Origin: a virus
Taxonomy: Duplodnaviria > Heunggongvirae > Uroviricota > Caudoviricetes
Length of the DNA: 39,153 nucleotides
Reading direction: 5' to 3' (one strand)
IMG/VR virus record: IMGVR_UViG_2609459804_000025
Shown: piece after piece, positions 1,449 to 28,496 of the stretch
Layout: the number at the start of each line of letters is the position of its first letter
Position numbering within the stretch: position 1 is the stretch's first letter
Program-made: the position numbers and the translations under genes
The notes under the pieces: model-generated
Seen by the model: only the letters and a program-made list of their open reading frames with translations
What the model was told of the DNA's origin: nothing
The model's database searches: none

Positions 1449-1803
1449 TTTGTGATTTGCGTGTGAGGGTGCTACTTTCGACCGAACCTTTGGCAACCGG
1501 ATAGCGGGGGCTTTCACCCCCGCTGCGGTTTCTTACGGTTTACACTGCAAGAACGCCGCAAATTCTGACCACATGATGTTAAGTCTGAACTCACACGGCG
1601 AACGGTGTATCATCCAGACTGTCAACAACATGGTTAAGCATAAAATGCTCACGATGATCGTTTTTTGCGGCATAGCGCTTGCTCCTTTTTCAAAGAGGCG
1701 CTAACCTTCCACTTGCGAAGGTTAGATGGTTAGGGCCTCGGGTTAAACAAATGTTTGACTCGGGGCCTTTTCACATCCGGCCTTCAGGTAATCCTTCCAG
1801 CCG

Positions 1804-2106
1804 TCAGCCGAAAGGCACCCGCGCGTAATGTACAGTTTTTGACTGGGAGGCGCAATCGCCCAGGGGGAGGCTGAGTTGATCCCTTCCCCGGTGGCATGAT
1901 TTGAAAGCGTCTGCGGGGACGACTCCCCGTTCTTCGGTGGGTTGCGGACGGCATACGGTTCTCACGACAAACTCGTGCGTCACAAAGGTGGCGCTGCATT
2001 CAATGTTGTTGCACTGGTAATATTTCTCCCTGATTGTTCCTGTATCGTTGGCGTCGCGGCTTGTTCTGGTGCGGGTACTTGCTCCGCAGTATGGGCAAGG
2101 ATGCAT
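1804..2106 (-). CDS. ogr: Ogr-type zinc-finger late transcription activator
   Basis: N-terminus MHPCPYCG...TSR...KYYQCNNIECSATF resembles P2 Ogr (Cys-x2-Cys ... Cys-x4-Cys); located just downstream of D on the same strand as in P2. The C-terminal third is longer than in P2 Ogr and not recognisable. Confidence 0.8.
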   Translation of the reverse strand: MHPCPYCGASTRTRTSRDANDTGTIREKYYQCNNIECSATFVTHEFVVRTVCRPQPTEERGVVPADAFKSCHRGRDQLSLPLGDCASQSKTVHYARVPFG

Positions 2107-2147
2107 GATGGTCCCCCTGGCTGAAACGGGGTGGGCTCGCGCTCATT

Positions 2148-3293
2148 CTAGCCAGTCGTGGCGCGCTCTGCTATCCAGTCTGCGATTTTTGCTTCCAGCT
2201 CCAGTCTGGTGGTGAAGCCGCTGTCGTCGATGACGTGCTCAATGCGCGAAATAATCCAGTCCTGATTGTCAATGTCGCTCTTGAACCCGGATACCGTGCC
2301 GTGCATCTCCGGATACAGGTCGGCGCGTCCGCGCGCCAGCGTGATGCTGAATTCTGCTGCACCCCGCTGAAGTTGCTGCCAGCGTGCGGCAGCTGCGCGA
2401 CGCGCGGCTTCTTCGTTCGGGTAGGTTTTTCTCAGCACATACACATTGCCTTCTGCGCCTTCCATGTATCCACCCTCCCGTGAACTGCTTTTCTCCGGCT
2501 TCTGTGTGGTTTTCGCGTTTCGCTTTTTCACGTTCACGGCCTTCTTCTGGCCGAACTTTAAATCCAGCCAGTAAGCTTTCACTCCGGTATAGGCTTTTCT
2601 GTCAGCAATGCGAAAGCGATGACTGTCGCCATCCGAGCGGGTCAGGGCGAATGAGGGGAGGGCGCGCCCGCTGGCTGTCACACCGCCACCCGGCAGAATG
2701 AACAGCAGGCACCCGTTTTTTACGGTGGTTATTGCACCCAGCATGTCAGCCATACGCGTGAGGAACGAGATGTCGCTTTCCTCTGTCTGGTCTGCATGGT
2801 CGATTTCGATATTCATCAGCATTTCGCTGATTTGTGCTTTCAGTCCGTAACGGTGCGCGATGGCAGATACCACACGCTCAACGGTCACGTCATGCCAGGA
2901 GACTTCGCGTTTCACGTTAAACTCTTCGCGAAAATCCGCACTGTTCGCGGATATGGTCAGCTTATCCGGCGGACCTTCGTGGCTCACTTCGTCCACCACA
3001 AACGCCCCCTTGCGAGTGAGGCTTTCACCTTTCCATCCCATCGCCAGCGATAATCGTGTTCCGCGCTCCGGAAGTACCACCCCGCCGTCGGCGTCGTCGA
3101 TTTCCAGTGTCACCCTGTCAGCCTCAAAACCCCTGTTGTCTGTCATGGTCAGGCTCATGATGCGCTGCGTGATGTTCTTCAGGCTGGCATCTTTCCCTTC
3201 CAGTGTGATAGTGAAGTCTGGCACCCTAACGGTATCTTCCGCTGCATCCAGTGCGCTGTTGATGTGATGTGTTACTGATTCAGTGATGCTCAT
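2148..3293 (-). CDS. D: phage tail protein D (late control gene D)
   Basis: 381 aa; strong similarity along the whole length to P2 gpD as recalled (LTDNRGFEAD, SWHD, FLTR, KLLF, ITRSDGD, GEYMAGE, RGxAEFSI, SGFK, DQDW, FTT.LELE). Confidence 0.93.
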   Translation of the reverse strand: MSITESVTHHINSALDAAEDTVRVPDFTITLEGKDASLKNITQRIMSLTMTDNRGFEADRVTLEIDDADGGVVLPERGTRLSLAMGWKGESLTRKGAFVVDEVSHEGPPDKLTISANSADFREEFNVKREVSWHDVTVERVVSAIAHRYGLKAQISEMLMNIEIDHADQTEESDISFLTRMADMLGAITTVKNGCLLFILPGGGVTASGRALPSFALTRSDGDSHRFRIADRKAYTGVKAYWLDLKFGQKKAVNVKKRNAKTTQKPEKSSSREGGYMEGAEGNVYVLRKTYPNEEAARRAAAARWQQLQRGAAEFSITLARGRADLYPEMHGTVSGFKSDIDNQDWIISRIEHVIDDSGFTTRLELEAKIADWIAERATTG

Positions 3294-3353
3294 GATATCC
3301 CTCCCGTGTGCGTATCATCCCACGCGTACCTTGTCGTTTCTGTCCGGCTCTGT

Positions 3354-3371
3354 TGTAAAAAAATCCCCACA
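3354..3371. promoter_or_regulatory. TGT-N12-ACA dyad (Ogr/Delta-type late-promoter activator site) between D and FI
   Basis: tgt aaaaaaatcccc aca read directly; centre is about 55 bp upstream of a plausible FI transcription start near 3417, matching the P2 late-promoter architecture. The site is palindromic and also lies about 70 bp upstream of the D start codon on the opposite strand. Confidence 0.45.
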
Positions 3372-3434
3372 GCCCGCATCAGGTGAGGGCTGTGCGCCAA
3401 TGGTGGATTATTCAGGCGAGCATAAACACAACTG

Positions 3435-4640
3435 ATGGTGAATCGTATGGCTGAAAAACGATTTCACGGTGTGCGCGTCACGGAGAATACCGACCTTGTG
3501 ACGGCCATTAATGACGTTGATTCCAGCGTCATTGGTATTGTTGCCGTTGCAGATGATGCGGATACCGGGCAGTTCCCCCTTAACAAGCCTGTGCTGATTA
3601 CCCGTGTATCTTCTGTTCTGGGGAAGGCCGGGAAAGCGGGCACGCTTTATAAGGCCCTTAAAGCGATATCTGACCAGGTCAGTACACGGGTGATTGTCGT
3701 TCGCGTGGAGGCGGCAAAAGAGGGGGCTGAGAATAAAACACAGGATCAACTGGTCATTGGTACCACGGAAGAAGACGGAAGCTACAGCGGTATGCAGGCG
3801 CTTCTGGTTGCCGAACAGATGGAAGGTATTGGTTACCGACCCCGCATTCTTGCCGCTCCGGGCCTTGAATCGGATGCTGTCACGGCTGCACTGGTGACTG
3901 TTGCCGGAAAAATGCGCGCATTTGCGTATTCCGGCTGCCCTGGCTGCACAAAACCGTCCGATGCTATTGCGTTCCGTAAAAAGATTTCCGGTCGCGAAAT
4001 CATGCTTCTGTGGCCTGATTTCATTGCGTTCAACCCGGTGTCCGGTAAAAACGAAACCTTCCCGGCTGCGGCGTATGCGTGCGGTCTTCGTGCCCGACTC
4101 GACCATGAACAGGGCTGGCATCGCTCCCTTTCTAACATGCCTGTGAAAAATGTTCTTGGGGTGTCAGCGTCTGTTTCCTGGTCACTTCAGGATGAAAACA
4201 GCGATGCCAACACGCTGAACAATAGCGAGGTGACCACTCTTATTCACCAGGGCGACGGCTCCTTCCGTTTCTGGGGTAACCGTACGCCGGAAACTGCGGA
4301 GTACATCTTTGAGGTGTACACACGTACGGCGCAGCAACTGGCTGACACCATTGCGGAGGCGCAACTTCAGATAGTGGATTCACCGCTTACGCCTGCCAAT
4401 GCTAAGGATGCCGTGAGCGCTATCAAGGCAAAGCTGGATGCACTGGTGACAGCCGGAAAACTCATCGGGGCTGAGTGCTGGTTCGATATCATCGACAACG
4501 GCACAACCAGTCTTCGTCAGGGCATTGTGCGTATTCGCTACAAATACACGCCTGTTCCGCCGATGGAGTGTATGGAACTCTATCAGACGTTTACCGACGA
4601 GTTCTTTGGCTCTGCTTTTGCATCTCTTGGAGGTAGCTAA
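3435..4640 (+). CDS. FI: contractile tail sheath protein FI
   Basis: 401 aa; close match to P2 gpFI as recalled (FPLNKPVLIT, GTTEEDG.Y.G, ILAAPGL, KMRAF, WPDF, DHEQGWH, WGNRT, YTRTAQ, YTPVPP). Alternative start ATG at 3447. Confidence 0.93.
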   Translation: MVNRMAEKRFHGVRVTENTDLVTAINDVDSSVIGIVAVADDADTGQFPLNKPVLITRVSSVLGKAGKAGTLYKALKAISDQVSTRVIVVRVEAAKEGAENKTQDQLVIGTTEEDGSYSGMQALLVAEQMEGIGYRPRILAAPGLESDAVTAALVTVAGKMRAFAYSGCPGCTKPSDAIAFRKKISGREIMLLWPDFIAFNPVSGKNETFPAAAYACGLRARLDHEQGWHRSLSNMPVKNVLGVSASVSWSLQDENSDANTLNNSEVTTLIHQGDGSFRFWGNRTPETAEYIFEVYTRTAQQLADTIAEAQLQIVDSPLTPANAKDAVSAIKAKLDALVTAGKLIGAECWFDIIDNGTTSLRQGIVRIRYKYTPVPPMECMELYQTFTDEFFGSAFASLGGS

Positions 4641-5152
4641 TGGCCGTACCAAAAAAACTTCGTGTGTTTACCGTCTTTGTGGACGGTGACAACAAGCTGG
4701 GCAAGGTGGCGTCTTTTACCCCGCCAAAACTGACCCGTAAAACAGAGTCGTATCGCGGGGCGGGGATGCCAGGCTCTGCGTCGGTGGATCTCGGTCTTGA
4801 TGATGGTGCACTGGATCTCTCCTTTGCGGTTGGTGGCGTCGATCGTCACATCTTTGCCAAATACGCCGCCGGTATTGATGCCGTGCGTGTTCGCTTCTCG
4901 GGTGAATACTATTCCGAAGAAGGGATTGAGTACGTCGATATTGAAGCCCGTGGTCGCATTGTCGAAATCGACAAGGGCGAGGCCAAACAGGGTGAAGATA
5001 CCGAACATACCTATGCGATGAAATGCACCTGGTACAAGCTCAGCGTTGATAACAGCGATGTTATTGAAATCGACGTGCTGAACTTCATCTGGCGCATTGA
5101 TGGTAAGGATGTTCTTCCTGACCGCACCCGCTCCATGCTGGGGCTTGGCTGA
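4640..5152 (+). CDS. FII: tail tube protein FII
   Basis: 170 aa; P2 gpFII-like (PPKLTRK.E.YRGAGM.GSA.VDLGLDD, GEAKQGEDTE); start overlaps FI stop (TAATG) with ggagg SD upstream. Confidence 0.93.
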   Translation: MAVPKKLRVFTVFVDGDNKLGKVASFTPPKLTRKTESYRGAGMPGSASVDLGLDDGALDLSFAVGGVDRHIFAKYAAGIDAVRVRFSGEYYSEEGIEYVDIEARGRIVEIDKGEAKQGEDTEHTYAMKCTWYKLSVDNSDVIEIDVLNFIWRIDGKDVLPDRTRSMLGLG

Positions 5153-5203
5153 TAGTTAAATCTGATAACAGGGGCGGCGTCCTGTTGCCCCGGGAGAAAA
5201 ATA

Positions 5204-5584
5204 ATGGATCAGACTGAAGAAAATATCGTGACGAATGACACAGATGCTGTGACGAATGGCGACACGGAAAACGCAGAGGCGATCGCAAATGACACGGTTA
5301 ATCTCAGGGTTCCTGTTGTCTGCGGTAATAAGACGGTTTCCAGCGTGAAGATTGGGGCGCTTGCGCGTCAGGTGGGCTCGCTTCGAGGGATCCGCATGAC
5401 GGACCTGTTCAACACCGATGTTGATGCTGCCGCCATTTTTCTGGAACGCGTAACTGAACCTCACCTCAGCCGCGCGGCACTTATGTCAATGTGCCCGGAA
5501 GACTTCTTTAAACTGTACGAGGTGGCAGTCGGTTTTTTGCTTCCCTCGTCAGCGAAGAAGGCGCAGGAGGCGGGCGGCGCGTAA
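5204..5584 (+). CDS. E: tail assembly chaperone E
   Basis: 126-aa ORF between FII and T, the conserved position of P2 gpE; contains the T6G slippery site near its 3' end. Confidence 0.8.
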   Translation: MDQTEENIVTNDTDAVTNGDTENAEAIANDTVNLRVPVVCGNKTVSSVKIGALARQVGSLRGIRMTDLFNTDVDAAAIFLERVTEPHLSRAALMSMCPEDFFKLYEVAVGFLLPSSAKKAQEAGGA

Positions 5585-5739
5585 CGCTTCTTGCTTTTGA
5601 TTACGTTGAAGATATTGTCGCTGATATAGCCGTTGTATTTCACTGGTCGCCCTCTGAAATCTTTGTGATGACTCCCGGTGAACTGGTTGCCTGGCGAGAA
5701 CGGGCGGCCGTCAGAACCGGGAATCATAACGATGAGTAA
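5204..5739 (+). CDS. E+E' extended chaperone made by programmed -1 ribosomal frameshift (slip at T6G, 5533-5539)
   Basis: Slippery heptamer ggTTTTTTG read at 5531-5539; the -1 frame downstream is open for 67 codons to TAA at 5737-5739 with no start codon of its own, encodes ...DYVEDIVADIAVVFHWSPSEIFVMTPGELVAWRERAAVRTGNHNDE, and ends 5 nt inside the T start codon region, as for P2 E'. Confidence 0.6.
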
Positions 5740-8563
5740 TAATCTCCAGATACGTGTAGCCCTTACTGCGGTCGACCGTCTCACTCAACCCGTCAGGCGC
5801 GCCCGGGAAATGACCGGCGCGCTTTCCGAATCTCTTTCCTCCACGCAGAACGCTCTTAAGTCACTCCAGCGAAGCAGTGATGCGTTTTCCCGTGCCCGCC
5901 AGCAGGTGACCTCGACTGAAAACAGTCTGAACGAGGCGCGTGCGCGACTTCAGCGCCTCCAGGAGGCCCAGCGTACAGGCACAACACTAACGGAAAAACA
6001 GCAGGAAGCTATACGCTCGCTGACTGTGAAGATTGATCGCCTTAATACGGTTTATTCCCTCCACAAATCCCGACTTAGCGAAGCCAGTCGCGAACTGGAA
6101 TCTCACGGTATACGGGCGGACGGAAGTAACCGTGCGGTCGAGAGGGCAATCAGGCGGACGCAGGAATACAACGATCAGCTCGAACGCCAGCGGGGCCAGC
6201 TTGCACGCGTCACGCAGGCGCAGCAACGCTATGACCGTGTTCAGGATATTGCCGGTAAGCTCAGTCAGCGCGGTGCTGTTGCCATGGCGGCTGGCAGTGC
6301 CGGTCTGTATGCTGCCGGTCGCGCGGTTGCACCTGTTGTTGAAGAGCAACGGCAGGGTGCGCTCATTGCGGCACAGAGTGGCGGCAGCGCAGAAGACGGC
6401 CAGCGCTACAGCCGTATGATTCAGAGCATCCGTGCGTCAGGTGCGGCCACGGATATCGCGATGATTTCGGAAGCAGCAGCTGCGGCGCAAAGCACGCTTG
6501 GCGCACTGGGTACCGTAGGGACTGAAGAACTGGAAAGGGTGACACGGCAGGCAATCGATCTTGCTCAGGTCACCGGCGGTAATGTGGCTGAACAGGTTCA
6601 GGCTGCTGGCATTATGCTGAAAAACGGGCTTGCCGCAAATGCAGGTGAGGCCGTCGACCTGATGGCGGCAGGGATGCAGAAAATGTCTGCCGAAATGCGC
6701 GGCGAACTTCCTGAAATTCTGCATGAGTATTCCACGCATTTCCGCAATATGGGGCTATCCGGCTCTGAAACCATGACGCTGCTTGTCAGCATGGCGCAGC
6801 AGGGGAAATTCGCCCTGGATAAAACCGGCGATGCTGTCAAAGAATTCAGTATTCGCGGCTCGGATATGTCCAAATCCAGCGTTGAAGCCTATGAGCTGAT
6901 TGGCCTTAACGCTGAAAGAATGTCGTCAGCGATCGCCAGTGGCGGCGCGGCCGCGCGTGAAGCGATGCGTCGCACCGCGTCAGGTCTGTTACAGATTCAG
7001 GATCCTGCAGAACGGGCCAATGCGGCGATAGCGCTGTTCGGCACACCCATTGAAGATCTGGCTGTTGACCAGATCCCGGATTTTCTCCGGTCGCTTGCAA
7101 CGGTATCTGACCGTATGGGGCTGGTTCAGGGAACCGCCCGGCGAATGGGGGATGTTCTGCGTGACAACCTCGGCGGCGACACCGATCGTCTGTCCGGCAT
7201 TTTCTCCGGTATTCGCAGTGATGTTGTGTCGCTGGTTACTGATGATATCCGCGAGCTTGTACAGGCTGTTGCTTCTGTGGGTGAACGCTTCAGGTCGTGG
7301 GTTCAGGAAAACCCGCAGCTTGTACGCACGCTGACCCTTACCGTGGGTGGCGTGCTTGCGGCCACAACGGCCATTGGTGCGTTGTCTGTCGGAGGTGGGT
7401 TACTGACGGGGATTTTTGCAAAACTTCAGCTTGGCTCTGCGCTTCTTGGTGGCGGGCTATCCTCGCTTACAAACGGTGTTGGTGGTCTTGCTCTTCGCCT
7501 GTCCGGCCTTCCGGCACTGTGGGGGATGGTCTCCGGTGCGGTTTCTGTGCTGGGCGGGGTGCTTTCCGGTCTTCTCAGTCCTGTTGGTCTCGTGATTGCT
7601 GCTCTTGCCGGTGGGGCGCTGCTCATATGGCGTCACTGGGAACAGGTTAAGGCGTTCATGCTCGGCACATTCCGGTCGCTGTGGGCTGGCCTTGCGCCTG
7701 TTCGTGAAAGTATTGCTCAGTTTGCGCCGTTGTTTGATCTGGTGTCGGGTGCGGTGTCCACGGTGTTTGACTGGTTTACCCGGTTACTCACGCCTGTTCA
7801 GGCCAGCAACGAATCTCTTGAACGGTGTACGTCTGCGGGAGAAAGCTTCGGTCGTGTACTTAGTGGGGCGATATCGCTTGCGCTTACGCCGCTGAAGGCG
7901 CTGATGGATGGACTTGCCTGGGTACTGGAAAAGCTTGGCGTGCTGCCTGATGAAGCTGAAAGGGCGCGCCGGAAACTGGAGGATGCACAGCGGGCTTCGC
8001 TTCTTCAGGGCAAGCTCTCCCTGCTTCAGGGGGATGTTAATGCCATTATCTCGCCCGCTAAGCCAGTTGATGGCAATGATAAAGGTAATAATGGTGGCAA
8101 GCCTTCTGTCATAAACGACGGCACCAGTGGCGTTCTTCGCAGGCTCAAAGGTATCGAGGGTAATACGTCGGGTATGCTTCAGGAAGCCCGCAAGCGTATC
8201 GGTCCTGGCGATATCGTGTTTAAAAATCTCCCCCGTGCGCTGGCTGTTCGCGGGCAGTGGAATGAACCGACTGTTGCACCCGGGCTTCCGCTTATGCCAG
8301 CGTTTTCGCCTGTGTCTCCGGCGGTTTCCCCGGATTCTTCCCGTCCTGTGGAGGTTAAGCGGTGGGATCCGGTGTCCCCGACACCCCGGGGGCCTTCGCG
8401 CTCTCCTGAACCGCCGCCTGTGTACGGTGGTGATATTCATGTTCACCTTCACAACGTGGTTACGCAGAACCCTCGCGACCTTGCCAGAATGGTGGGGGAG
8501 GCGGTACGGGAAGAAATTCGCAGACAATCCGGCGGTATGAACAGTTTCCGCGATCGTGATTAG
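5732..8563 (+). CDS. T: tail tape measure protein T
   Basis: About 943 aa from ATG 5732 (the track start at 5678 is GTG); coiled-coil N-terminus, Gly/Ala-rich hydrophobic middle, position between E/E' and U; typical tape-measure composition. Confidence 0.9.
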   Translation: MSNNLQIRVALTAVDRLTQPVRRAREMTGALSESLSSTQNALKSLQRSSDAFSRARQQVTSTENSLNEARARLQRLQEAQRTGTTLTEKQQEAIRSLTVKIDRLNTVYSLHKSRLSEASRELESHGIRADGSNRAVERAIRRTQEYNDQLERQRGQLARVTQAQQRYDRVQDIAGKLSQRGAVAMAAGSAGLYAAGRAVAPVVEEQRQGALIAAQSGGSAEDGQRYSRMIQSIRASGAATDIAMISEAAAAAQSTLGALGTVGTEELERVTRQAIDLAQVTGGNVAEQVQAAGIMLKNGLAANAGEAVDLMAAGMQKMSAEMRGELPEILHEYSTHFRNMGLSGSETMTLLVSMAQQGKFALDKTGDAVKEFSIRGSDMSKSSVEAYELIGLNAERMSSAIASGGAAAREAMRRTASGLLQIQDPAERANAAIALFGTPIEDLAVDQIPDFLRSLATVSDRMGLVQGTARRMGDVLRDNLGGDTDRLSGIFSGIRSDVVSLVTDDIRELVQAVASVGERFRSWVQENPQLVRTLTLTVGGVLAATTAIGALSVGGGLLTGIFAKLQLGSALLGGGLSSLTNGVGGLALRLSGLPALWGMVSGAVSVLGGVLSGLLSPVGLVIAALAGGALLIWRHWEQVKAFMLGTFRSLWAGLAPVRESIAQFAPLFDLVSGAVSTVFDWFTRLLTPVQASNESLERCTSAGESFGRVLSGAISLALTPLKALMDGLAWVLEKLGVLPDEAERARRKLEDAQRASLLQGKLSLLQGDVNAIISPAKPVDGNDKGNNGGKPSVINDGTSGVLRRLKGIEGNTSGMLQEARKRIGPGDIVFKNLPRALAVRGQWNEPTVAPGLPLMPAFSPVSPAVSPDSSRPVEVKRWDPVSPTPRGPSRSPEPPPVYGGDIHVHLHNVVTQNPRDLARMVGEAVREEIRRQSGGMNSFRDRD

Positions 8564-8574
8564 GAGTGATGGTT

Positions 8575-9039
8575 ATGATGATGATTTACGGCATGTTTGT
8601 TTTTCAGTTAAGCACACTGCCACACCAACAAATACAACAGTCCCGTAACTGGAGGCATGTAAAGAACGAGCGAATCAACCGCTCAGCCAGCTGGCAGTAT
8701 ATCGGCGCGGGTGACGATACCATCACGCTTTCGGGTTTGCTCTACCCGGAAATTACGGGCGGTGAAGTCTCCCTGACCGCACTGACCAGCCAGGCTTACG
8801 TCGGGCGACCATGGCCGCTGATTGATGGGGTAGGGCAGATTTACGGGATGTATGTCATTACCGGGCTTAACACCACCCGCTCTGAACTTGATCGCTATGG
8901 TCGGGCAAGAAAGATTGAGTTTACTGTCACTTTTGAGCGTGTGGATGAAGATCTGCGTGAACGTCTTCAGTCCTCGTCGCTTGGTGATCTTGCGAATAAC
9001 GTCAAAGGTGCCCTGAATAATCTGTCCATTCCGGTTTAA
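8575..9039 (+). CDS. U: tail protein U
   Basis: P2 gpU-like (WQY.G.GDD.ITL.G.LYP..TGG..SL, GRPWPLI.G.G.IYGM.VITGL, RHGRAR.IEF.VT..RVDE); SD aggag at 8562-8566. The track start 8566 is GTG; ATGs at 8569-8581. Confidence 0.88.
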   Translation: MMMIYGMFVFQLSTLPHQQIQQSRNWRHVKNERINRSASWQYIGAGDDTITLSGLLYPEITGGEVSLTALTSQAYVGRPWPLIDGVGQIYGMYVITGLNTTRSELDRYGRARKIEFTVTFERVDEDLRERLQSSSLGDLANNVKGALNNLSIPV

Positions 9040-9044
9040 ATAAT

Positions 9045-9070
9045 AACGCCCTGGTGTCAGGGCGTTTTTG
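9045..9070. terminator. bidirectional intrinsic terminator between convergent U and tail-fibre-assembly genes
   Basis: aacgccctg-gtgt-cagggcgtt 9-bp perfect stem followed by tttttg on + strand and an A/T-rich tract on the other side. Confidence 0.6.
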
Positions 9071-9074
9071 CTGT

Positions 9075-9683
9075 TCATCTTTCGGTGGCGGGTTCTTCCG
9101 TTGTGGGCCAGCCCACAACGTAACGCTGAATGGCCTCCGCATCCTGAAGTTCTGCAATCTCTTTTTTCATGTTGCGCTGGCGCACATGAATTTCCATTCC
9201 CTTCGCGAACATTGCCTGTTGCGCGGCTTCACTCAGCGCAATCAGTTCTTCCGCAGTCATGGGGACGTCGTTGTTGTCTGCGTCTGTCCAGAAAAACTTC
9301 TCCGGGAGATTGCCTTCTTTTGCTGCGATAACTGATGGGCCAAGGCGATCCTGTGTTTCCTTTCCATAATCCCAGTTACGGCCATTAAAGCTGAAAATAT
9401 AACTGGCTGATTCCATTCTGTTCCGCCAGGCGTTGATCCCGGCGGTTTTGAGTTCTCTGGCTTTTTCCGGGCTGATGGATGGCTGTACATGTTCTGCAAT
9501 TTCACCGGCCTCTCCTTTCTGACAAGCGGCATAAATATCCCGCCCGTATGCTTCGGTATCGCTGGCTGTTGCAGTGAAAGGAACCGCCTGCTCAATGTGC
9601 TCAAACTTCACCATGCAATTGACAGCAGTGTGCTCTTTATCTGCCCATTGCGGATTGCTTATTTTTTCCACATTCATGTTCAT
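9075..9683 (-). CDS. G: tail fibre assembly protein (gpG-like chaperone)
   Basis: About 202 aa from MNMNVEKISNPQW (ATG at 9683-9681, SD aggag 5-6 nt upstream); sits immediately downstream of tail fibre H; typical tail-fibre-assembly-protein size and N-terminal motif. Confidence 0.82.
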   Translation of the reverse strand: MNMNVEKISNPQWADKEHTAVNCMVKFEHIEQAVPFTATASDTEAYGRDIYAACQKGEAGEIAEHVQPSISPEKARELKTAGINAWRNRMESASYIFSFNGRNWDYGKETQDRLGPSVIAAKEGNLPEKFFWTDADNNDVPMTAEELIALSEAAQQAMFAKGMEIHVRQRNMKKEIAELQDAEAIQRYVVGWPTTEEPATER

Positions 9684-9693
9684 CTCCTGTCTG

Positions 9694-11301
9694 TCAGTAT
9701 GCGCGCTGGAACAGCCCGATGCTTTCATTATCATTTGTCGACGTAATTTCATTACACACCATCCATGAGCCCGGAACTGAGGATAGTATGCCGTCAATGC
9801 CATCGGTGTTAGCTTTCATATAGTTTCCGTTTTCGTCTTTGATTAGGGCGCATCGCTTAAGGCGTGAACCCGATACAGTTTCTCCTGGCTGATAGGTTCT
9901 GCCGATGTCGGTTATATACGGGCCTAGTGCGGCAATAATGTATGTTCCGATGCTGTAAATTTCCCCGGGTACCAGCCTTCCGGTTGGCCCTTGTGGTCCG
10001 GTTTCACCTGTCGGGCCCTGTGGACCTGTCGGGCCCTGTCTTCCTGTTTCTCCCTGCAAACCTCGTGGTCCGGTGTTCCCCTGCGGCCCCGTCGGTCCCG
10101 TCGGCCCCGTCGGCCCGGCAGGTCCTTGTCGACCCGCTGGCCCCTCGGCCCCCAGTTCCTTCCAGTCCGTCCATGGACCATTTCCGGTGAAATTACCGTT
10201 GACAGCCCTGACAAACTTCCTGATGGGGTTCCATGTAGTGTATTCCTGTTGACAGAAACCCCAGGCTCCCATTTTCACGGACAGGTATCCCGCCTGTTCA
10301 ACGGGGTAGTGCATGGCGGTGGTTGCATCTTTATTGGCCGACTGATAGTAATCCCCGTGGTGTTCTGGTTTTCCCAGTGTATTGAGATCAACGGTCAGCG
10401 CGGTATATTTCGCCTTCTGTGCTCCGCTTTGTGTTGACTGTTGAAGTTGTTGTACGGTCTGGTTTGTGGCATTGATTTGTTGCTCCAGTGTTGAGGCTTT
10501 CTCACTTGCTGCCTGTGCACTCTGTTTAGCCTGTTCAGCCAGTTTTTCGGCTTCAGTGGCTTTCTGCATGGTGAGCTGGACTGCCTTTGGTGTTGCAGCG
10601 GCGTTTTCGGCGGCGCTGCCCGTTTCGCTGCTCAGCCGGACGATGCCTTTCTGGCTGGTCGTGGCGTCAGTGACTGAAGATTTTTCATTAATCATTCCTT
10701 TCAGCGTTTTGATGGCCTTAGAGGTTGCGGCTGTTTCTTCGCTGTCACTGTCGGTGGCACTGCTCAGTTGCACAAATCCCTTTGTGCTTGTGGATGCAGA
10801 CTGGTGGGTGCCGCTTTTTTCATGTTCTTTGATGGCCTGATCCAGAGCGGCTTTTGTGACCATGACAACTGACTGATCCAGTTTAATATTCAGCGCAGAA
10901 ATATTACTCAGGAGAATAACCATCCTGAATACCTGCTCCCGACCTGAACCTTCCTCCAGCTTCGGTTTGTAACCTTCTGCTACGTTGCCAACAGCAATCA
11001 GGGCACCTTCATCATCGAATAACCCAATCTCCCTCACCCAGAAGCCGCCCTGGTCAGCAGGAATAACCAGCTCTGCGGTGACAAAGCTTTCATTCTCCGC
11101 ATCCTGTGTGATGCTGGAGATATTCCCTTCCCAGACTTTTTTCACCAGTTGTTTTTGCCCTTCTGATGGCTCCACTTCCTGGCCGTTGCCGTCGCCCACC
11201 TGCATCTTTGCCAGGGTGACTTTTTTTCCACCGGGCTTCAGGGCTTCGGCCAGCTTCCGGCGGCCCTCAGTGGTGATAATGGTTTTGTATTTCTGTGTCA
11301 T
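9694..11301 (-). CDS. H: tail fibre protein H with collagen-like GXY repeats
   Basis: 535 aa from [18 protein letters not shown] (ATGA overlap with I stop); conserved P2 gpH-like N-terminus, Ser/Thr/Ala-rich repeats ([12 protein letters not shown]), then about 60 aa of uninterrupted Gly-X-Y triplets ([22 protein letters not shown]...). Confidence 0.88.
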
Positions 11302-13261: not shown

Positions 13262-13839
13262 TGTGGGCCTCCGCTCGTATCGCTACCGCTCTTCACTCCG
13301 CTGTGTACGTGGGTGTGTACGGTGATGCCGTTTGATTCGAGGCTGCCGCCACTGTGTTTCACGTTGCCTTTCATTGTTCCGCCGCTGGTCAGCTCGAATG
13401 TCTTTGTCTTCAGCAACTGCGTACATTCCACCTTTGGCGCGTCCAGCGTGATACTGGTTTCAGCCGTAATGGTTGCGGTTTTTATACCTCTGGCCGTCAG
13501 GCTGCTTTCCTGTGCGTTATAGCGAAATTCCGCACCGTCCGGCGCGGTAATGACCATTTCGTTTTCCAGCGATCCCGGTGGCGGGTTGTCGTTGCTGTAC
13601 AGACTTCCTGCGCTGACTGCGGTTTCCGGATTGCCGCCCGGGCATAGGAGAAACACCTGTTCGTCCGGTGATGGGGGGATCCAGATTTTAAATTTTCCGG
13701 CCCGCCCGCTGTTCCATCGGATCCAGTTTGTGGTCAGGCCGCCGGTCTGCACACGCACCTCCCAGGTGTCGGTGTTGATTTCCGTAACCACACCAATCCG
13801 CACAATGTTTTCCAGCAGACGCATAAGCTCGATGTTCAT
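13258..13839 (-). CDS. V: baseplate spike/assembly protein V
   Basis: 193 aa; P2 gpV-like (VQTGG..T.W..W...RAG, TLD.P.VECT, GG.L.SNG...HTH.H). Confidence 0.9.
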   Translation of the reverse strand: MNIELMRLLENIVRIGVVTEINTDTWEVRVQTGGLTTNWIRWNSGRAGKFKIWIPPSPDEQVFLLCPGGNPETAVSAGSLYSNDNPPPGSLENEMVITAPDGAEFRYNAQESSLTARGIKTATITAETSITLDAPKVECTQLLKTKTFELTSGGTMKGNVKHSGGSLESNGITVHTHVHSGVKSGSDTSGGPQ

Positions 13840-14938: not shown

Positions 14939-15035
14939 AAAACACCGTAGAACGTGTTGCGTGTGGCAATTAAAAATCTCAAAATTAAATGGCTTTTAAT
15001 TCGGGTTCTTTCTTGCTCACCTTTCCCCTCTTGCA

Positions 15036-15062
15036 CCCTCCGTATACCGGAGGGTTTTTTGT
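15036..15062 (+). terminator. strong intrinsic terminator oriented for + strand transcription, located between - strand genes
   Basis: ccctccg-tatac-cggaggg perfect 7-bp GC-rich stem followed by tttttt; on the - strand it is preceded, not followed, by the U-tract. Confidence 0.5.
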
Positions 15063-15110
15063 TTCTTTTGCTGTGGACAGTGGTGCCGTTCTGATGCGCT
15101 GTGCCTGTTG

Positions 15111-15275
15111 TTATGGCAATACCCCGTTGACCGCTCCGCCAGCTGATTTCCTGGCGGCTGCTTCATCTATCTTTTTGTTCCAGAAATTGCGGACGGCTTT
15201 ATATCCCCCTGAGATCAGATACAGAAGGGATACGGCGGTACTGAAATACAACATTATCTGATGAATAAATCCCAT
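15111..15275 (-). CDS. small hydrophobic protein (54 aa, one predicted TM helix), below ORF-track size cutoff
   Basis: ATG at 15275 preceded by aaggag SD at 7-nt spacing; translation MGFIHQIMLYFSTAVSLLYLISGGYKAVRNFWNKK...; immediately downstream of the esterase gene. Confidence 0.4.
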   Translation of the reverse strand: MGFIHQIMLYFSTAVSLLYLISGGYKAVRNFWNKKIDEAAARKSAGGAVNGVLP

Positions 15276-15339
15276 GGCTTGCTCCTTTTATTTTCCCGGT
15301 TGTCAGCGAGCTTCCCCGCCGGATGGCTGGGAAGCATTG

Positions 15340-17310
15340 TTATGCCGGTGGCTGATTTACGACAACGCTCAGGCTGTCAATCAGTACGGTATAGGTCGGC
15401 CGATACGTGATATCGGTCACGCGTAACGTGTCGTTGGTAACATCGGCTTTTGATGTGGAAAGCATGAACGGTTTTCCGTCCACGCCATCCAGAACCGGTG
15501 TTACCTGGGTGCTGTTGTTTCCCGCAAAACGAAACGCTATGGTGTGCCAGTTGTTATTGAACTGACCAAAGGTTCCCAGTTGTTCGTTTGGCGTTTTGTG
15601 ATACATCAGATTCAGGTTTGCGCTGTCTGTCTGAAGAAAGAATGAGAGCAATAAATTATTTGGATCTGCCCCCAGTAATTTCACATCCTGCGGTAATGCT
15701 GATGTTTTCCAGTACATCGCCATTGCGTACTGGTCTTTTTTCAGCTCACCCTCGATTTTGAATCGGCAACTTACAGTCCCGCCATTTTTCAGAAGGTCAG
15801 CACCATTACCGGCCTTATGCTCCAGATACCAGGTATTGCCTTCCTGTTTGGTCAGTTTCAGGGCTTTTTTCCCTGTTGCTTCCTCATCACCGATCAGCAT
15901 GTCTTTCAGTTGTTTTGGTGTGTTGGCCCCGTTTTTGCCTTCGCTCAGCGTCCAGCCCTGGCTTTCCCGTTCAGGAGATGATGCCAGCAGACTCATGAGC
16001 GTGACCGGCCCCGGTCTGACTGCCGGTTGTTCTGCTTCCGGTGAAGATGGCTTACTGATGCCGCCCGGTGCATCCTGTGATGGTTTTGCCACGCGTTCCG
16101 GCTCTGTACCCGCAATAAATGGCAGCGTGCGGCCGACGTTAAGCAGGATTGCTGACGCCATGCGATCGGCAATAATGCCCCGGCGGGCCCATGAGCTGAA
16201 GTGCGTTCCACGCAGATGGCTTACCCAGTTTCCGCTACTGCGGGATGCGGCACCGTAATAACCCGCTTCCGCAATATCCGGATCTTCTGTCGGCTCGTTT
16301 GTTGGGGTGTTTTTCCCGTACTCATCCGTAACAAAAGGCACAAAAACAATATTCTTCTCAGTGCTGTTTTTGTATCCGCCATACACGGTTGCGTACTGTG
16401 CTTCGTAGGTTTTTTTCCAGTGGTAGGTGGTATCTCCACAAATCCACGGCACGCTTTCAGGGTTGCCCTGGTTGCACTGCTTCGCAACATCGGCCAGGTC
16501 AGCCCGGAACTGCTTCACCATGGCTGTGAAAAGATCTTTATGCTGTGCGGCGTTTTGTTCTTTCTCAAGATCTGCCTCGCCCTGTGTCCAGCAGACGGCC
16601 AGCAGGACGTTTTTCGGATTTTTCGCCAGCGCTGCTTTTGTGCGGCTGATTAAATCCTTGTACAGCGGCGTGTTCGTTCCCCAGCGGCAGGATTTTTCAG
16701 TTGCGCCGCCGATCTCGCTGAATTGCCCCGCATCACCGGTTGTAAAGCCGGAACCGCCACGGCTGCATGGGACCAGAAGGATCCCCGCATTTGCCGGGAT
16801 AAATGGCAGCAGGCGCTTCGCAATGTGCAATCCCTGACTCACACAGCCATGCTGACCTTTGTTCAGGTCGGCTTTCGGGTGGTTGTACTGGCTCATATCC
16901 TGCACGTCATGCAGGCAGTGATCCGCCAGAATGATGTCGTTATAGGCACAAGCTTTTCCGCCCGGGGTTACGGTGCTGCGGCGTGCCAGCTGGCGAATGC
17001 GCGAATCGGGTTTATCGTAACTTTCCGGGAGAGGTAACCCCTCACCGTATGCCATAGAGTTGGACTGACCAGCGCTCACCACAACGTAATACCACTCCGG
17101 TTCGCTGTCGGATGTCGGGGTGATAATGGTGCCTCCCTGGTCATCACTGCCTGAAACCATAGCCTGCATGAGATACCAGGGGACTCCCGGCTCTGATGCA
17201 ATACCGGCATTACCGAGAAGTTCCCAGCCTTCCTGTAACCGCTTGTTAACTTTTTCAGCGAATTCTGCGCGGTTGGTGGCAGTAATCAGTTCAAAGTGTT
17301 TTTTGCTCAT
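15340..17310 (-). CDS. sialate O-acetylesterase-like protein (N-terminal DUF1737-like domain + SASA/SGNH esterase domain with GQSN motif; NanS-p-like prophage cargo)
   Basis: 656 aa; VVVSAGQSNSMAYGEG contains the GQSN catalytic-serine motif of sialate O-acetylesterase (SASA) domains; domain order resembles prophage NanS-p esterases of enterohaemorrhagic E. coli; SD aggag 6 nt upstream of ATG, 3 nt after the lysC stop. Confidence 0.75.
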   Translation of the reverse strand: MSKKHFELITATNRAEFAEKVNKRLQEGWELLGNAGIASEPGVPWYLMQAMVSGSDDQGGTIITPTSDSEPEWYYVVVSAGQSNSMAYGEGLPLPESYDKPDSRIRQLARRSTVTPGGKACAYNDIILADHCLHDVQDMSQYNHPKADLNKGQHGCVSQGLHIAKRLLPFIPANAGILLVPCSRGGSGFTTGDAGQFSEIGGATEKSCRWGTNTPLYKDLISRTKAALAKNPKNVLLAVCWTQGEADLEKEQNAAQHKDLFTAMVKQFRADLADVAKQCNQGNPESVPWICGDTTYHWKKTYEAQYATVYGGYKNSTEKNIVFVPFVTDEYGKNTPTNEPTEDPDIAEAGYYGAASRSSGNWVSHLRGTHFSSWARRGIIADRMASAILLNVGRTLPFIAGTEPERVAKPSQDAPGGISKPSSPEAEQPAVRPGPVTLMSLLASSPERESQGWTLSEGKNGANTPKQLKDMLIGDEEATGKKALKLTKQEGNTWYLEHKAGNGADLLKNGGTVSCRFKIEGELKKDQYAMAMYWKTSALPQDVKLLGADPNNLLLSFFLQTDSANLNLMYHKTPNEQLGTFGQFNNNWHTIAFRFAGNNSTQVTPVLDGVDGKPFMLSTSKADVTNDTLRVTDITYRPTYTVLIDSLSVVVNQPPA

Positions 17311-22284: not shown

Positions 22285-22357
22285 GTAAATCCCCTTTCTG
22301 TGGGTTGCTTTTCTTCATGATGATAAGGGGATGGCTGCGCCTCAAGGCGGCGATGTT

Positions 22358-22375
22358 GTAAGAGCGTGGCGACAA
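22358..22375. promoter_or_regulatory. TGT-N12-ACA dyad in the divergent O/P late-promoter region
   Basis: tgt aagagcgtggcg aca read directly; centred about 55 bp upstream of a TSS expected near 22421 (P start codon 22442) and also about 55 bp from a possible leftward TSS near 22311 (O start 22284). Confidence 0.45.
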
Positions 22376-22441
22376 TGGCACCGGATACCTGGATGAATGC
22401 GCGGGCGTTTACTCTTGAGATCAAACAGCAAGGGGGCGTCA

Positions 22442-25935: not shown

Positions 25936-27633
25936 TTATTTATCCTCTTTAATGATTTTGTTATAGTCAAAATCCCAAATTTTTCTGTCAATGCCGTTTG
26001 TTGGTGTAACCCGGTAGAATAAGGATCGTAATCCATTGTAAAAATACTGGAGAGATTTCTGATTTTCTGGTTTGTTTAACCAGTTTCTTGTAATCATTCT
26101 AAAGAATTCAATATGCTGATTGAATATTTTCTTATTTAATTTTCTGCTTAAACCGGATGTAGACTCATGGTTGTCTTTTCTTTTCTGAATTTCAGTTTCA
26201 ATTGATTGTAATTGAGGACGTATCTTGAGTAAGTATAACTCTTTCGAAAAACCATTGTTAATTATATCCTGATTTTCCCAGAAGGAAGAGTCGTCGGTAT
26301 TATAAAGGTGCTCACAATGCTCAAATATCAATTGTTCTGGAGCTTTTTCACCCGGCAGTGATATAATTCCTCTCTGATCCTCAGGGCTGTGATCTCCATC
26401 AAGAATACAAATTGATTTTAACGAGGTTTCCTTAAGATGAGAATCATTAAAAATAGTTTTTAAATTGTCTGCACCAATGAAACAATCAATTAAGTGAAAT
26501 GAATTACTAACTATAGCAAAATTTGGATATTTGCTTATCCAATAACCAAGTATTTCATTAAATAAAAAGCGAGCTTCTTCATCTTCCGTGAAAACTGGTA
26601 TCTTGTTCCTTGTGTATATCTCATCCTTTGTTTGTGTTTTCAGATACATTGTTATTTTTAATATATCAGGATTATCCAAAAGCAGAGCCTTTGTAATATT
26701 GTTAATTAGATAGACAACATGGTATTTTTTATGAAAAGCATATTCTAGCAATGTCAGACTGTGCGTTGTGAAAAATACTTGAATCTTATAATCTTTTGCG
26801 TATTGATAAATTTTATCTAATAATCTTATCTGTAAAGAAGGATGTAAAGTGGCATCAAATTCATCTATTAACAGAATGCTTTCTTTTTGATCAGTGGATT
26901 GAATAAGTGATTCAAAATAATACCTAAGGCTAACTAATGCCTTGATTATAATGAATATATTGTCTTCCCCGGATGATATGGTATTAGAATCAATTGCTGG
27001 GTTATCGGTATCAAATAATGGGCCAGCTTTAAAATCTCCGATATTGTTTGATTCTATATTTATAATATTAATGCCCAAAAGTTCATTATATATTTTCGAT
27101 ATATAACCAACATACTCTTCTGGTAGGTTTAACGGAATTTTTGTAAGGGCGTCGTCTTTAGTTTCACCAATCGGGAATAGTCGCGATAATCCAAGATATA
27201 AAACTGGTTTAGCTGGAAGTGATTGTTTTTCTTTTCCGCGTGGGTATACTGGTTTGATAGCATACCGTTGCGCTTCGTCTGGATTTTTTGAGTTGTGCTT
27301 TCTGAAGTCTAGTGTGCTATGATCCAAATAGTTAATAGAAAATAACACACCTTTTGTTCCCTCTGCCGGATCGGTGTAATTTTTTGATTCCCTAACAATT
27401 GCTTCCATTTTTGGGTTGGCTATTTTGTTTATAGATTTTATAACTCTAACACAATTACTATTTGAATAATTTTGTGATCTAGATGGTGGTATTTGGAAAC
27501 CATTGCTAATTAAATGAAGCAATGTTGTCTTACATGTCCCATTGGTTCCTGATATTATATTGATGTCTTCATTGAATGAGAAGTCAATATCTATCAGTTT
27601 CTTAAATTTTTTAAAACTAATTTCTTTAATCAT
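25936..27633 (-). CDS. ABC-type ATPase with C-terminal TOPRIM-like nuclease domain (OLD-family-like ATP-dependent nuclease)
   Basis: 565 aa; Walker A ISGTNGTCKTTLL, signature-like ISSGEDN, Walker B/D-loop ILLIDEFDATLHP, H-loop FFTTHS; C-terminal FTEDEE and ILDGDH fit TOPRIM E and DxD motifs. Very AT-rich coding sequence; SD aaggatg. Confidence 0.8.
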   Translation of the reverse strand: MIKEISFKKFKKLIDIDFSFNEDINIISGTNGTCKTTLLHLISNGFQIPPSRSQNYSNSNCVRVIKSINKIANPKMEAIVRESKNYTDPAEGTKGVLFSINYLDHSTLDFRKHNSKNPDEAQRYAIKPVYPRGKEKQSLPAKPVLYLGLSRLFPIGETKDDALTKIPLNLPEEYVGYISKIYNELLGINIINIESNNIGDFKAGPLFDTDNPAIDSNTISSGEDNIFIIIKALVSLRYYFESLIQSTDQKESILLIDEFDATLHPSLQIRLLDKIYQYAKDYKIQVFFTTHSLTLLEYAFHKKYHVVYLINNITKALLLDNPDILKITMYLKTQTKDEIYTRNKIPVFTEDEEARFLFNEILGYWISKYPNFAIVSNSFHLIDCFIGADNLKTIFNDSHLKETSLKSICILDGDHSPEDQRGIISLPGEKAPEQLIFEHCEHLYNTDDSSFWENQDIINNGFSKELYLLKIRPQLQSIETEIQKRKDNHESTSGLSRKLNKKIFNQHIEFFRMITRNWLNKPENQKSLQYFYNGLRSLFYRVTPTNGIDRKIWDFDYNKIIKEDK

Positions 27634-27650
27634 CTATATCATCCTTAAAT

Positions 27651-28496
27651 TTAAATGTCAGGGATTTTTATACCATGATTATAAATGATAATTTCTAGAC
27701 CTTTTTTCTTATCTTGTGCAGTATAATTAAGCGTATAATCAGTCATGTTGAATTCATGATATATGCTTTTTATTTCAGGCACATTGTCATAAGACACAAC
27801 CCAAGGTAGTTGAATTTCACGTAGTGTATTAGCGATTTTTACATGATCATCATGTTTATAAAAATTTCTATATAACTCTGCTCCTTTAACATAATAAGGT
27901 GGATCAAGATATATTAGACTATTTTGGGGTAGTAATGCTTTTTGGTGTAGCAGAAAATCTGCAGCATCAAAATTCGATACGTAAATTTTCTCCTTATATG
28001 CACCAATTAGTTCAATCCTTTTAATTAACTCTTTTTTGTTGAATCTTGCATCTAACTTCCATGGTCCTTTTTGTTCTTTCCCTCCAATAACGCCAGCCTT
28101 AAGTATTCCTGAACGGTTTGTTCTATTTAAAAAGAAAGTAGATAATGCGACTTCAAGCATACTATATTTATCATTGTTTAGGAGTATCTCCTTTTGAGTA
28201 TGCCAATTTTCAATAGTCACAGGAACTTCATCAATCATTTCACATAACAGATCGTTATGATTAACCACTGCAAACCAAAAAGAATAAAGGGCAGGATCAA
28301 TATCATTTATGAAGATATTTTCAACAAGACCGTTAAGGAGCAAACCTAATGCTACACCGGCTCCACCTGCATAAGGTTCAGCATAACATCCACCAATGAG
28401 ATCATTGTTGCGGAGTATTTGTTCAATATGTGGCAAGAATTTTGCCTTACCTCCCGGATAACGAAGAGGGGTTCTAAAATGAGAAGGCTTTGTCAT
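27651..28496 (-). CDS. N6-adenine DNA methyltransferase, D12 (Dam-like) class
   Basis: 281 aa; N-terminal RYPGGK...EPYAGGAGV (AdoMet-binding, Dam motif order) and catalytic DPPY (IYLDPPYY); AT-rich like the downstream nuclease gene, 17 bp apart on the same strand. Confidence 0.85.
   Translation of the reverse strand: MTKPSHFRTPLRYPGGKAKFLPHIEQILRNNDLIGGCYAEPYAGGAGVALGLLLNGLVENIFINDIDPALYSFWFAVVNHNDLLCEMIDEVPVTIENWHTQKEILLNNDKYSMLEVALSTFFLNRTNRSGILKAGVIGGKEQKGPWKLDARFNKKELIKRIELIGAYKEKIYVSNFDAADFLLHQKALLPQNSLIYLDPPYYVKGAELYRNFYKHDDHVKIANTLREIQLPWVVSYDNVPEIKSIYHEFNMTDYTLNYTAQDKKKGLEIIIYNHGIKIPDI

Follow-up and report, generated by a model that had tools for sequence, protein, structure and literature searches.

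A P2-like prophage of Escherichia coli carries the inverted FI-U tail block of the P88-type Peduoviridae branch, with a predicted late promoter for gene D at a shared activator site

In phage P2, the genes V-W-J-I-H-G and FI-FII-E-T-U-D-ogr lie on one strand, and FI to D is annotated as one operon (pF-FI-FII-E-E'-T-U-D, then ogr). As the last gene of that operon, D has a start codon that overlaps with the stop of U (22791). Ogr/Delta-dependent late promoters share a consensus of three parts: a partial dyad, TGT-N12-ACA, whose centre lies about 55 bp before the start, a recognisable -10 and a poor -35 (PMC3931495). The P2 record assigns a single activator site (3057-3087) to the divergent promoters pP (start 3016) and pO (start 3127). 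The dyad of this site reads TGT-N12-(A/C)CA, the two -10 elements lie 34 bp away from it on opposite strands, and the starts lie 55-56 bp from its centre.

A different order is found in the P88-type relatives, comprising P88 itself (Xuanwuvirus), Reipivirus members such as Klebsiella phage ST16-OXA48phi5.4, and also Klebsiella 3LV2017, Enterobacter phiT5282H, Serratia KSP20 and Citrobacter Shae_phiSM. Here ogr and D occupy one strand, FI-FII-E-T-U the other, and the fibre and baseplate genes are back on the first. P88 and pro147 have been induced as host-lysing phages, according to the P88 paper (PMC5285337).

The stretch of DNA analysed here, 39,153 nt in length and referred to as the window, contains a P2-like E. 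coli prophage inserted next to serS. Gene strands were read from the open reading frames, from PHROG and Pfam matches, and from an E. coli locus of 99.7% identity that is annotated in RefSeq. The minus-strand gene ogr (1804-2106) encodes the 100-aa late-gene activator, an Ogr/Delta zinc finger protein (Pfam PF04606 Ogr_Delta, E = 9.9e-16) whose translation contains CX2C...CX4C and whose RefSeq homologue is annotated as ogr/Delta-like. An overlapping 71-aa reading frame (1784-1999) was rejected as ogr, as it is the 100-aa frame that matches Ogr_Delta. D, the baseplate hub or late control D protein of 381 aa, follows at 2148-3293 on the same strand (phrog_52, E = 1.7e-153). The D protein is 49% identical to that of P2 and 68-74% identical to the D proteins of P88, ST16-OXA48phi5.4 and KSP20.

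The next five genes all lie on the plus strand. They are FI, the tail sheath (3447(3435)-4640, start at 3447 per the RefSeq homologue; phrog_23, E = 2.8e-113); FII, the tail tube (4640-5152; phrog_55, E = 1.5e-56; homologue annotated as 'phage major tail tube protein'); the tail assembly chaperone gene E (5204-5584; E+E' 5204-5739; phrog_103 and a weak match to Pfam Phage_TAC_7); T, the tape measure protein (5732-8563, start per the RefSeq homologue; phrog_28, E = 2.8e-120); and U, the tail tube initiator (8566-9039; Pfam Phage_P2_GpU, E = 5.6e-40; phrog_76). A putative -1 frameshift site, TTTTTTG, lies at 5533-5539, and the -1 frame is open to 5739, overlapping the T start at 5732. The minus strand then resumes with a DUF4376 tail fibre assembly gene in the position of G (9075-9677; phrog_1141 and Pfam DUF4376, coordinates from the RefSeq homologue) and with H, the tail fibre (9694-11301; phrog_988 and phrog_381, RefSeq homologue), followed by I, J, W, V, S and R.

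The Peduoviridae set of contractile tail genes is thus complete, with sheath, tube, E/E', T, U, D and the Ogr/Delta activator, and tblastn searches with P2 proteins recovered all P2-like tail-module homologues. The window shares with the P2 F operon its gene set, the -1 frameshift feature of E/E', the geometry of pF and the position of ogr after D. Whereas FI-FII-E-T-U-D run co-directionally after G in P2, here FI-U run on the plus strand, opposite to D and G, so the block between 3294 and 9074 is inverted relative to P2. The earlier note on this DNA had placed FI-U opposite D, ogr and G-H-I-J-W-V-S-R, and the reading frames, PHROG and Pfam matches and the RefSeq homologue all bear this out. 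It had also described both junctions as clean, and so they are: the D start faces the late-promoter dyad of FI, and the U stop faces the G stop across a bidirectional terminator. Whereas the D of P2 begins within the end of U, D in the window has a ribosome-binding site and a 5' region of its own.

The inverted order is widespread. Sixteen complete E. coli chromosomes contain the same 8.3 kb in colinear form, and in 14 the identity is ≥99%. The annotations of P88, ST16-OXA48phi5.4 and KSP20 put D on the strand opposite to FI and the genes after it, and the divergent D|FI junction is covered by about 45 GenBank phage records. Among 80 D-bearing loci from other species, 57 have the inverted order, and D identity separates the two types, with all 57 inverted loci at ≥58% and all 23 P2-type loci at ≤53%. 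In IMG/VR, every one of 80 loci is inverted. Of 40 records evenly sampled from 1,525 matching E. coli records, 31 (roughly three quarters) span the junction. An estimated 1,100 complete E. coli genomes, about one fifth of the total, carry the inverted order. In the window and in 141 loci, D and FI are adjacent and divergent while U and the fibre assembly gene converge. The inverted order is therefore the ordinary, fixed and inherited gene order of a very large P88-type branch of the Peduoviridae.

This distribution bears directly on the suggestion that the 5.8-kb block was wrongly oriented by an assembly misjoin, one of the two explanations offered in the earlier note. The difference from P2 is the sole point in its favour. 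The identical arrangement is found in 16 complete chromosomes, which come from projects unrelated to one another and include the NCTC9112 record LR134079, in published genomes of isolated phages and in 137 further loci, both the other-species and the IMG/VR ones contributing, and the junctions contain no repeats that could mislead an assembler. An artefact confined to one assembly was rejected, as the arrangement recurs in independent genomes, and we give the misjoin practically no credence. P2 is simply not representative of gene order in the commonest P2-like prophages of E. coli and other Enterobacterales, and a departure from it is therefore no sign of rearrangement or assembly error. Comparison with related prophages shows a standard lineage variant, the outcome that the note had itself named as refuting its observation.

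Within this branch, the window stands somewhat apart. Across D-FI it is only about 70-74% identical in nucleotides to the P88 group, coverage of the region stays below 80% in every phage record, and a search for a near-identical phage genome returned none, with matches limited to tail-fibre and hok fragments. Given this identity and coverage, the prophage represents a distinct species or a genus-level relative. Taking the evidence as a whole, we place the window, with a probability of roughly 0.9, in the P88-type branch, with an ancestral FI-U inversion, a fixed gene order, a D gene that is likely to be transcribed from a promoter P_D sharing the dyad of the FI promoter P_F, and a terminator between U and G.

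U and G are separated by 35 bp and converge on one bidirectional intrinsic terminator (9045-9066, both strands), a hairpin with a 9-bp stem and U-rich tails on both strands. Either strand folds at -16.1 kcal/mol, with z-scores of -4.2 and -6.4. Whereas the window has only this terminator at the U|G junction, the position is taken by a DUF262 gene in ST16-OXA48phi5.4 and by an invertase with alternative fibre cassettes in P88. The presence of a DNA invertase beside U in some relatives, such as P88, raises the question of whether FI-U was flipped recently in this strain or is flipped by a programmed switch of the Gin/Cin/Hin type. The segments controlled in this way in Mu (G) and P1 (C) likewise consist of phage tail genes whose orientation differs between genomes. 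However, they are small, are bounded by inverted repeats, adjoin a serine invertase and flip within a population, and for the window we found neither such repeats, nor an invertase, nor orientation polymorphism. The best pairs of inverted repeats flanking the block are at chance level (72-84% over 15-33 nt), no repeat pairs 3294-3434 with 9040-9074, and the annotation of the homologous E. coli locus lists no invertase. The P88 invertase itself adjoins the alternative tail-fibre cassettes and not the FI-U block. Not one of the 141 inverted-type relatives has the block in the opposite orientation (0/141), and orientation follows protein phylogeny. With repeats at chance level only, a switch or a recent homologous inversion is rejected, and we regard either as next to impossible.

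In each of the four trees built, for D, FI, FII and U, the inverted loci separate cleanly from the P2-type ones, and the window protein falls on the inverted side. The inverted group is monophyletic when colinear phiCTX is used as the outgroup. These observations are most parsimoniously read as one old inversion that would define the lineage; as the trees are neighbour-joining trees and the sample was chosen by similarity to the D of the window, a single event is parsimonious rather than proven. The reverse polarity, with the inverted order ancestral and the P2 order derived, draws on the fact that the colinear and inverted groups sampled come out as sister clades in the rooted trees, so that the trees alone give no polarity. 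However, the distant Peduoviridae are colinear, including Pseudomonas phiCTX and Burkholderia KS5 (in which D and U are adjacent on one strand), and in HP1 the tail genes all share one strand. The organism-named inverted loci, sampled as those most similar to the D of the window, are all from Enterobacterales except for one contig labelled Vagococcus. We therefore consider an ancestral inverted order improbable. The other explanation in the earlier note, a true inversion by which D is uncoupled from its operon, accordingly stands in part: the block is inverted relative to P2 and D lies apart from FI-U. It is no event of this genome, and D has probably kept its late control.

The grounds for the latter statement lie in the 153-bp D|FI spacer. 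This contains a TGT-N12-ACA late-promoter dyad (TGTAAAAAAATCCCCACA, 3354-3371, an exact match), which is better conserved across 141 loci than anything else in the spacer. The FI ATG is 84.5 bp downstream of the dyad centre, compared with about 83 bp for pF of P2. In the layout of Ogr/Delta-dependent late promoters, -10 hexamers lie 34 bp from the dyad on both strands. We calibrated this geometry on mapped P2 starts, as the experimentally mapped starts of P2 obey a 34-bp dyad-to--10 rule. On the plus strand, the P_F -10 GATTAT (3406-3411), 34 bp from the dyad, has a predicted start near 3418; 39 of the 41 inverted-type representatives have a -10 at this distance, and so do 16 of the 18 P2-type ones. 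On the minus strand, the proposed extended -10 of P_D (5'-TGgGATGAT-3', 3314-3322) has a predicted start near 3307. Of 41 non-redundant inverted loci, 34 have a D-side hexamer with A2/T6 at exactly 34 bp from the dyad, as does only 1 of 18 P2-type loci, and the background at other offsets is 4.3%; the remaining 7 of the 41 inverted representatives are without a clear A2/T6 hexamer at that exact position. Whereas P2 limits the shared-site layout to head genes, the predicted reuse of the pF dyad towards D appears specific to the inverted clade.

The dyad motif alone is no evidence, since exact TGT-N12-ACA occurs in the whole window at chance level (9 found, 8.9 expected). Weight is carried only by the position of the dyad, the two-sided -10 geometry and conservation across genomes. 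Perfect dyads with -10-like hexamers 34-35 bp away on both sides are found in the window only in the D|FI spacer and in the O|P spacer (dyad at 22357-22374), and both spacers match the pP/pO layout of P2. The spacers of the P88 group likewise have a dyad with two -10 elements. No P_V-type promoter was recognisable upstream of R/S/V in the window.

We infer the following promoter model from this conservation. An ancestral inversion of the segment comprising P_F and FI-FII-E/E'-T-U would have severed D, together with ogr, from the F operon and brought the D start next to the P_F activator site, on the upstream side of the latter. D would then most likely be transcribed from its own late promoter, P_D, which would use the palindromic TGT-N12-ACA Ogr dyad of P_F, proposed as the common Ogr-binding site, in the opposite direction. 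From left to right, the arrangement would comprise the minus-strand extended -10 (3314-3322), the dyad (3354-3371) and the P_F -10 (3406-3411), the dyad being separated from the -10 hexamer on either side by 34 bp, with predicted starts at about 3307 (minus) and about 3418 (plus), each 55.5 bp from the dyad centre. Such a geometry would equal that of the divergent pP/pO pair of P2 with its one common activator site. In line with this model, we somewhat favour the view that D returned to late control after the inversion by co-opting the P_F Ogr site in reverse, which would give these phages a second bidirectional late promoter, P_D/P_F, alongside pP/pO. Because the conserved second -10 would use the activator site of FI, D was probably not left without late control.

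An extended -10 can function without an activator. P_D might therefore be partly or wholly Ogr-independent, and D might be expressed independently of the shared dyad, constitutively, under some other control or from another start; the inversion would then truly have uncoupled D from late control. The TG extension (TGn) before the D-side -10 in most loci fits such a promoter, as does a G+C-rich tract conserved in the D-side spacer and lacking a mirror counterpart on the FI side. However, the D-side -10 is locked at 34 bp from the dyad, as in the mapped Ogr-dependent promoters of P2, whereas its distance to the D ATG drifts by 14 nt (17-31 nt). An activator-independent promoter would have no reason to preserve the 34-bp spacing, and pP of P2 has a similar G+C-rich spacer. 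For these distances, D start codons were set by reading frame and Shine-Dalgarno criteria, as extrapolation from tblastn gave misleading dyad-to-D distances. We consider expression independent of the dyad unlikely and retain the shared-site P_D as the preferred reading. Separately, the conserved CGCGCGCG tract on the D side is unaccounted for by the promoter model.

Neither the inversion nor a D promoter is mentioned in the P88 paper (PMC5285337), a 2026 survey of P2-like viruses (PMC13100340), a study of P2/P4 defence hotspots (PMC13586616), work on Burkholderia P2-like phages (PMC3091744) or a Xenorhabdus tailocin paper (PMC13280938). The inversions discussed in the tailocin paper concern tail-fibre cassettes (PMC13280938). 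As far as we found, the P_D/P_F reading is undescribed in the literature searched; specialists may already have noted the inversion or the promoter. The mirror-symmetric, conserved spacer provides a testable prediction of a second bidirectional late promoter with a shared activator. The positions of the D start, promoter and terminator may aid the annotation of P2-like prophages and possibly of tail-like (tailocin) loci. If the model is true, it would be a clean natural example of a symmetric activator site that allows a gene block to flip while regulation is retained.

If the model holds, D would also change from the final cistron of a long operon to a short late transcript that optionally reads into ogr. 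A putative -10 of ogr's own promoter, TAGAAT (2145-2150, minus strand), overlaps the D stop codon. In most inverted-type relatives a near-consensus -10 (TAGAAT, TAAAAT, CATAAT or TATAAT) directly follows the D stop, and where cargo separates D from ogr in such relatives, this -10 remains beside ogr.

The block at 3294–9074, which holds the tail genes FI, FII, E, T and U, was compared with the P2 reference record, using a gene layout drawn from a six-frame ORF list, PHROG and Pfam assignments, and the way RefSeq annotates an E. coli chromosome segment of 99.7% identity. These sources agree. On the minus strand lie ogr (1804–2106) and D (2148–3293). Ogr is the 100-aa ORF at 1804–2106 (Pfam Ogr_Delta); a 71-aa minus-strand ORF that overlaps it in another frame (1784–1999), also downstream of D, has no Pfam family match. 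FI (3447–4640), FII (4640–5152), E/E' (5204–5739, with a slippery TTTTTTG at 5533–5539), T (5732–8563) and U (8566–9039) follow on the plus strand. G (9075–9677) returns to the minus strand, as do H, I, J, W, V, S and R, which precede the lysis and head genes. In P2, V-W-J-I-H-G and FI-FII-E-E'-T-U-D-ogr all share a single strand, with FI to D annotated as one operon from pF. Compared with P2 the block is thus inverted, in agreement with the earlier note, and the junctions are as clean as it described. D and FI are separated by 153 bp, U and G by 35 bp containing a hairpin with terminator-like scores on either strand (–16.1 kcal/mol; z = –4.2 and –6.4).

The inverted block is neither an artefact nor a private event. 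In a megablast search of complete E. coli genomes with 1700–10000, the entire 8.3 kb is colinear with the window in 16 chromosomes, 14 at 99.0–99.7% identity and two at 88%, all from unrelated projects. The assembly misjoin that had been offered as an alternative is excluded by the same order in these independent chromosomes and in phage records. With a 1-kb junction probe, 1,525 complete E. coli records gave a match; 31 of 40 rows spread evenly over this ranking span D and the sheath gene in the window orientation. This sampling estimate suggests that about 1,100 genomes, roughly a fifth of the complete E. coli collection, carry the arrangement. A distant search of phage records recovered the same D|FI junction in Escherichia phages P88, 500465-2, 520873, 503458, PhiR44_2 and Chuche, Xuanwuvirus P884B11, Citrobacter phage Shae_phiSM, Enterobacter phage phiT5282H, Serratia phage KSP20 and many Klebsiella phages. 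In their deposited annotations, D (together with any annotated ogr) is on the strand opposite to FI-FII-E-T and, where the record extends that far, U. Deposited phage genomes include no close relative (identity across D–FI about 70–74%), and near-identical copies are present in E. coli chromosomes. The prophage belongs to the P88-type branch of P2-like prophages; its arrangement is ordinary and could be seen in public databases ever since KSP20 and P88. No inverted repeats flank the block in a search of both its ends, and no invertase is annotated in the homologous E. coli RefSeq locus.

Among 80 loci retrieved by D-protein alignment from one-genome-per-species contigs and classed by tblastn with the window and P2 tail proteins, 57 are inverted and 23 colinear like P2; the best 80 IMG/VR loci are all inverted. 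The order is thus a standard lineage variant, and the interest that the earlier note saw in the inversion lapses on its own terms. Hosts of inverted loci include Citrobacter, Edwardsiella, Serratia, Symbiopectobacterium, Enterobacter, Pantoea, Kosakonia, Salmonella, Brenneria, Erwinia, Pectobacterium, Klebsiella, Raoultella, Providencia, Xenorhabdus, Photorhabdus, Yersinia, Morganella and Hafnia, among others. Across the 80 loci, D identity to the window is at least 58% in every inverted locus and at most 53% in every colinear one. Exactly this split is recovered in all four neighbour-joining trees (D, FI, FII, U), and the inverted group is monophyletic for D and FI with Pseudomonas phage phiCTX as outgroup. 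phiCTX has the colinear order, U and D are same-strand neighbours in Burkholderia KS5, and the tail genes of HP1 all share one strand. The parsimonious reading is that one old inversion took place on the stem of an Enterobacterales-associated Peduoviridae branch. One contig labelled as a Firmicute (NZ_JBQPOM010000071.1, 'Vagococcus sp. WN89Y') holds a typical enterobacterial P88-type prophage whose D is 71–72% identical to the window D; it is probably contamination or a mislabelled assembly.

In a P2 structure preprint, gpD is described as the trimeric baseplate hub and gpU as the tube initiator sitting on it (bioRxiv 10.64898/2026.09.14.750843), and the U stop and D start of P2 share position 22791. 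The inversion thus split the genes of two directly contacting proteins, a separation that is evidently harmless. The tail genes of the window are intact, as judged by ORFs, PHROG matches and the E/E' reading, and P88 and pro147 were induced as host-lysing phages (PMC5285337).

The D|FI spacer holds a perfect TGT-N12-ACA dyad (3354–3371), the consensus summarised for the Ogr-dependent P2 late promoters in PMC3931495. The FI-side –10, GATTAT (3406–3411, plus), lies 34 bp to its right; on its left, at the same distance, is a putative D-side –10, GATGAT preceded by TG (3314–3322, minus). Measured from the dyad centre, the predicted starts (3418 and 3307) are both 55.5 bp away. P2 has a single 'activator binding site; pO, pP promoters' (3057–3087), with mapped starts at 3016 (minus) and 3127 (plus), 55–56 bp either side of its centre, and –10 hexamers TAGCCT and GAAACT exactly 34 bp from both edges of a TGT-N12-CCA dyad.

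We aligned 141 inverted-type spacers gap-free on the dyad and thinned them to a set of 41 representatives that share less than 80% identity. Conserved columns extend the palindrome to GTTGT...ACAAC. The pattern xAnnAT occurs at +34 on the top strand in 39 of 41, and at –34 on the bottom strand in 34 of 41 (background at other offsets 4.3%, next-best offset 20%). Of 18 P2-type representatives, 16 have the FI-side –10 and only one the opposite-strand –10, that flank usually carrying a terminator instead. With its preceding TG, the D-side hexamer could also belong to an activator-independent extended –10 promoter expressing D, which we consider unlikely. The hexamer lies a constant 34 bp from the dyad but anywhere from 17 to 31 nt from the D start codon, and so appears tied to the activator site, not to translation signals. 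Taken together, spacer geometry, conservation and the P2 pP/pO layout lead us to propose a bidirectional Ogr-dependent promoter, P_D/P_F, with one common activator site, which would transcribe D (probability about 0.6). This element would be only mildly new; our literature search found no paper commenting on the inverted arrangement or a D promoter.

A conserved alternating C/G tract (3320–3329; consensus tCAcGCGCGCG at the same position in the relatives' loci L006–L165) separates the dyad from the proposed D-side –10. The TG of the extended –10 accounts for its first bases only, and nothing on the FI side mirrors the rest. In P2 pP a G+C-rich stretch occupies the corresponding position.

Scanning the whole window for a dyad plus a –10 at 33–35 bp gave just two perfect dyads that have a –10 on each side, in the D|FI spacer and in the O|P spacer (22310–22422). 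The latter has a similarly symmetric layout, its dyad (22357–22374) flanked by CATCAT (minus, 34 bp away) and TACTCT (plus, 35 bp away). For P, the start codon at 22442 fits both this layout and the RefSeq homologue, unlike the longest-ORF start at 22397. The S stop overlaps the V start (13836–13839), so there is no P2-style intergenic pV, and the scan found no dyad-plus-–10 candidate upstream of R (14939–15340). R through G may be transcribed by read-through from pO past an insert at 15340–17310.

The D–ogr gap measures 41 bp in the window and 36–61 bp in most relatives, with a near-consensus –10 (TAGAAT in the window, overlapping the D stop). This short gap is an insertion hotspot in relatives (loci L012, L048, L097, L107 and L111, for example). 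About 17 of the 141 inverted-type loci carry 0.4–4 kb of AT-rich cargo between D and ogr, and the –10 stays with ogr. As in P2, then, ogr probably retains a promoter of its own, with D–ogr co-transcription optional.

In relatives, the U|G junction, which corresponds in position to the Z/fun site of P2, holds cargo. P88 carries a DNA invertase and alternative tail-fibre cassettes there (L002 8251–10955) and Klebsiella phage ST16-OXA48phi5.4 a DUF262 protein (L003 7809–9712), whereas the window has the terminator only. The insert at 15340–17310 (minus), between the lysis genes and R and adjoining a small DUF1378 ORF, encodes a 656-aa protein with DUF1737, SASA (sialate O-acetylesterase-like) and DUF6645 domains and no PADLOC match. 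An AT-rich island at 25936–28496 (GC about 31% against 54% in its surroundings), between the portal and replication genes, encodes a 565-aa AAA_15/AAA_21 ATPase and a 281-aa D12 adenine methyltransferase (PADLOC PD-Lambda-5_B, E = 1e-121). It is likely defence cargo at the position of the P2 old/tin hotspot, where a near-identical E. coli prophage (L001) has different genes. serS (1–1293) is followed by a Hok/Gef-family toxin gene at the prophage end beside ogr (about 1533–1673, minus; per the L001 annotation), where P88 carries a MokW-like gene. This short region accounts for the many Stx-phage matches in the search for near-identical phage genomes.
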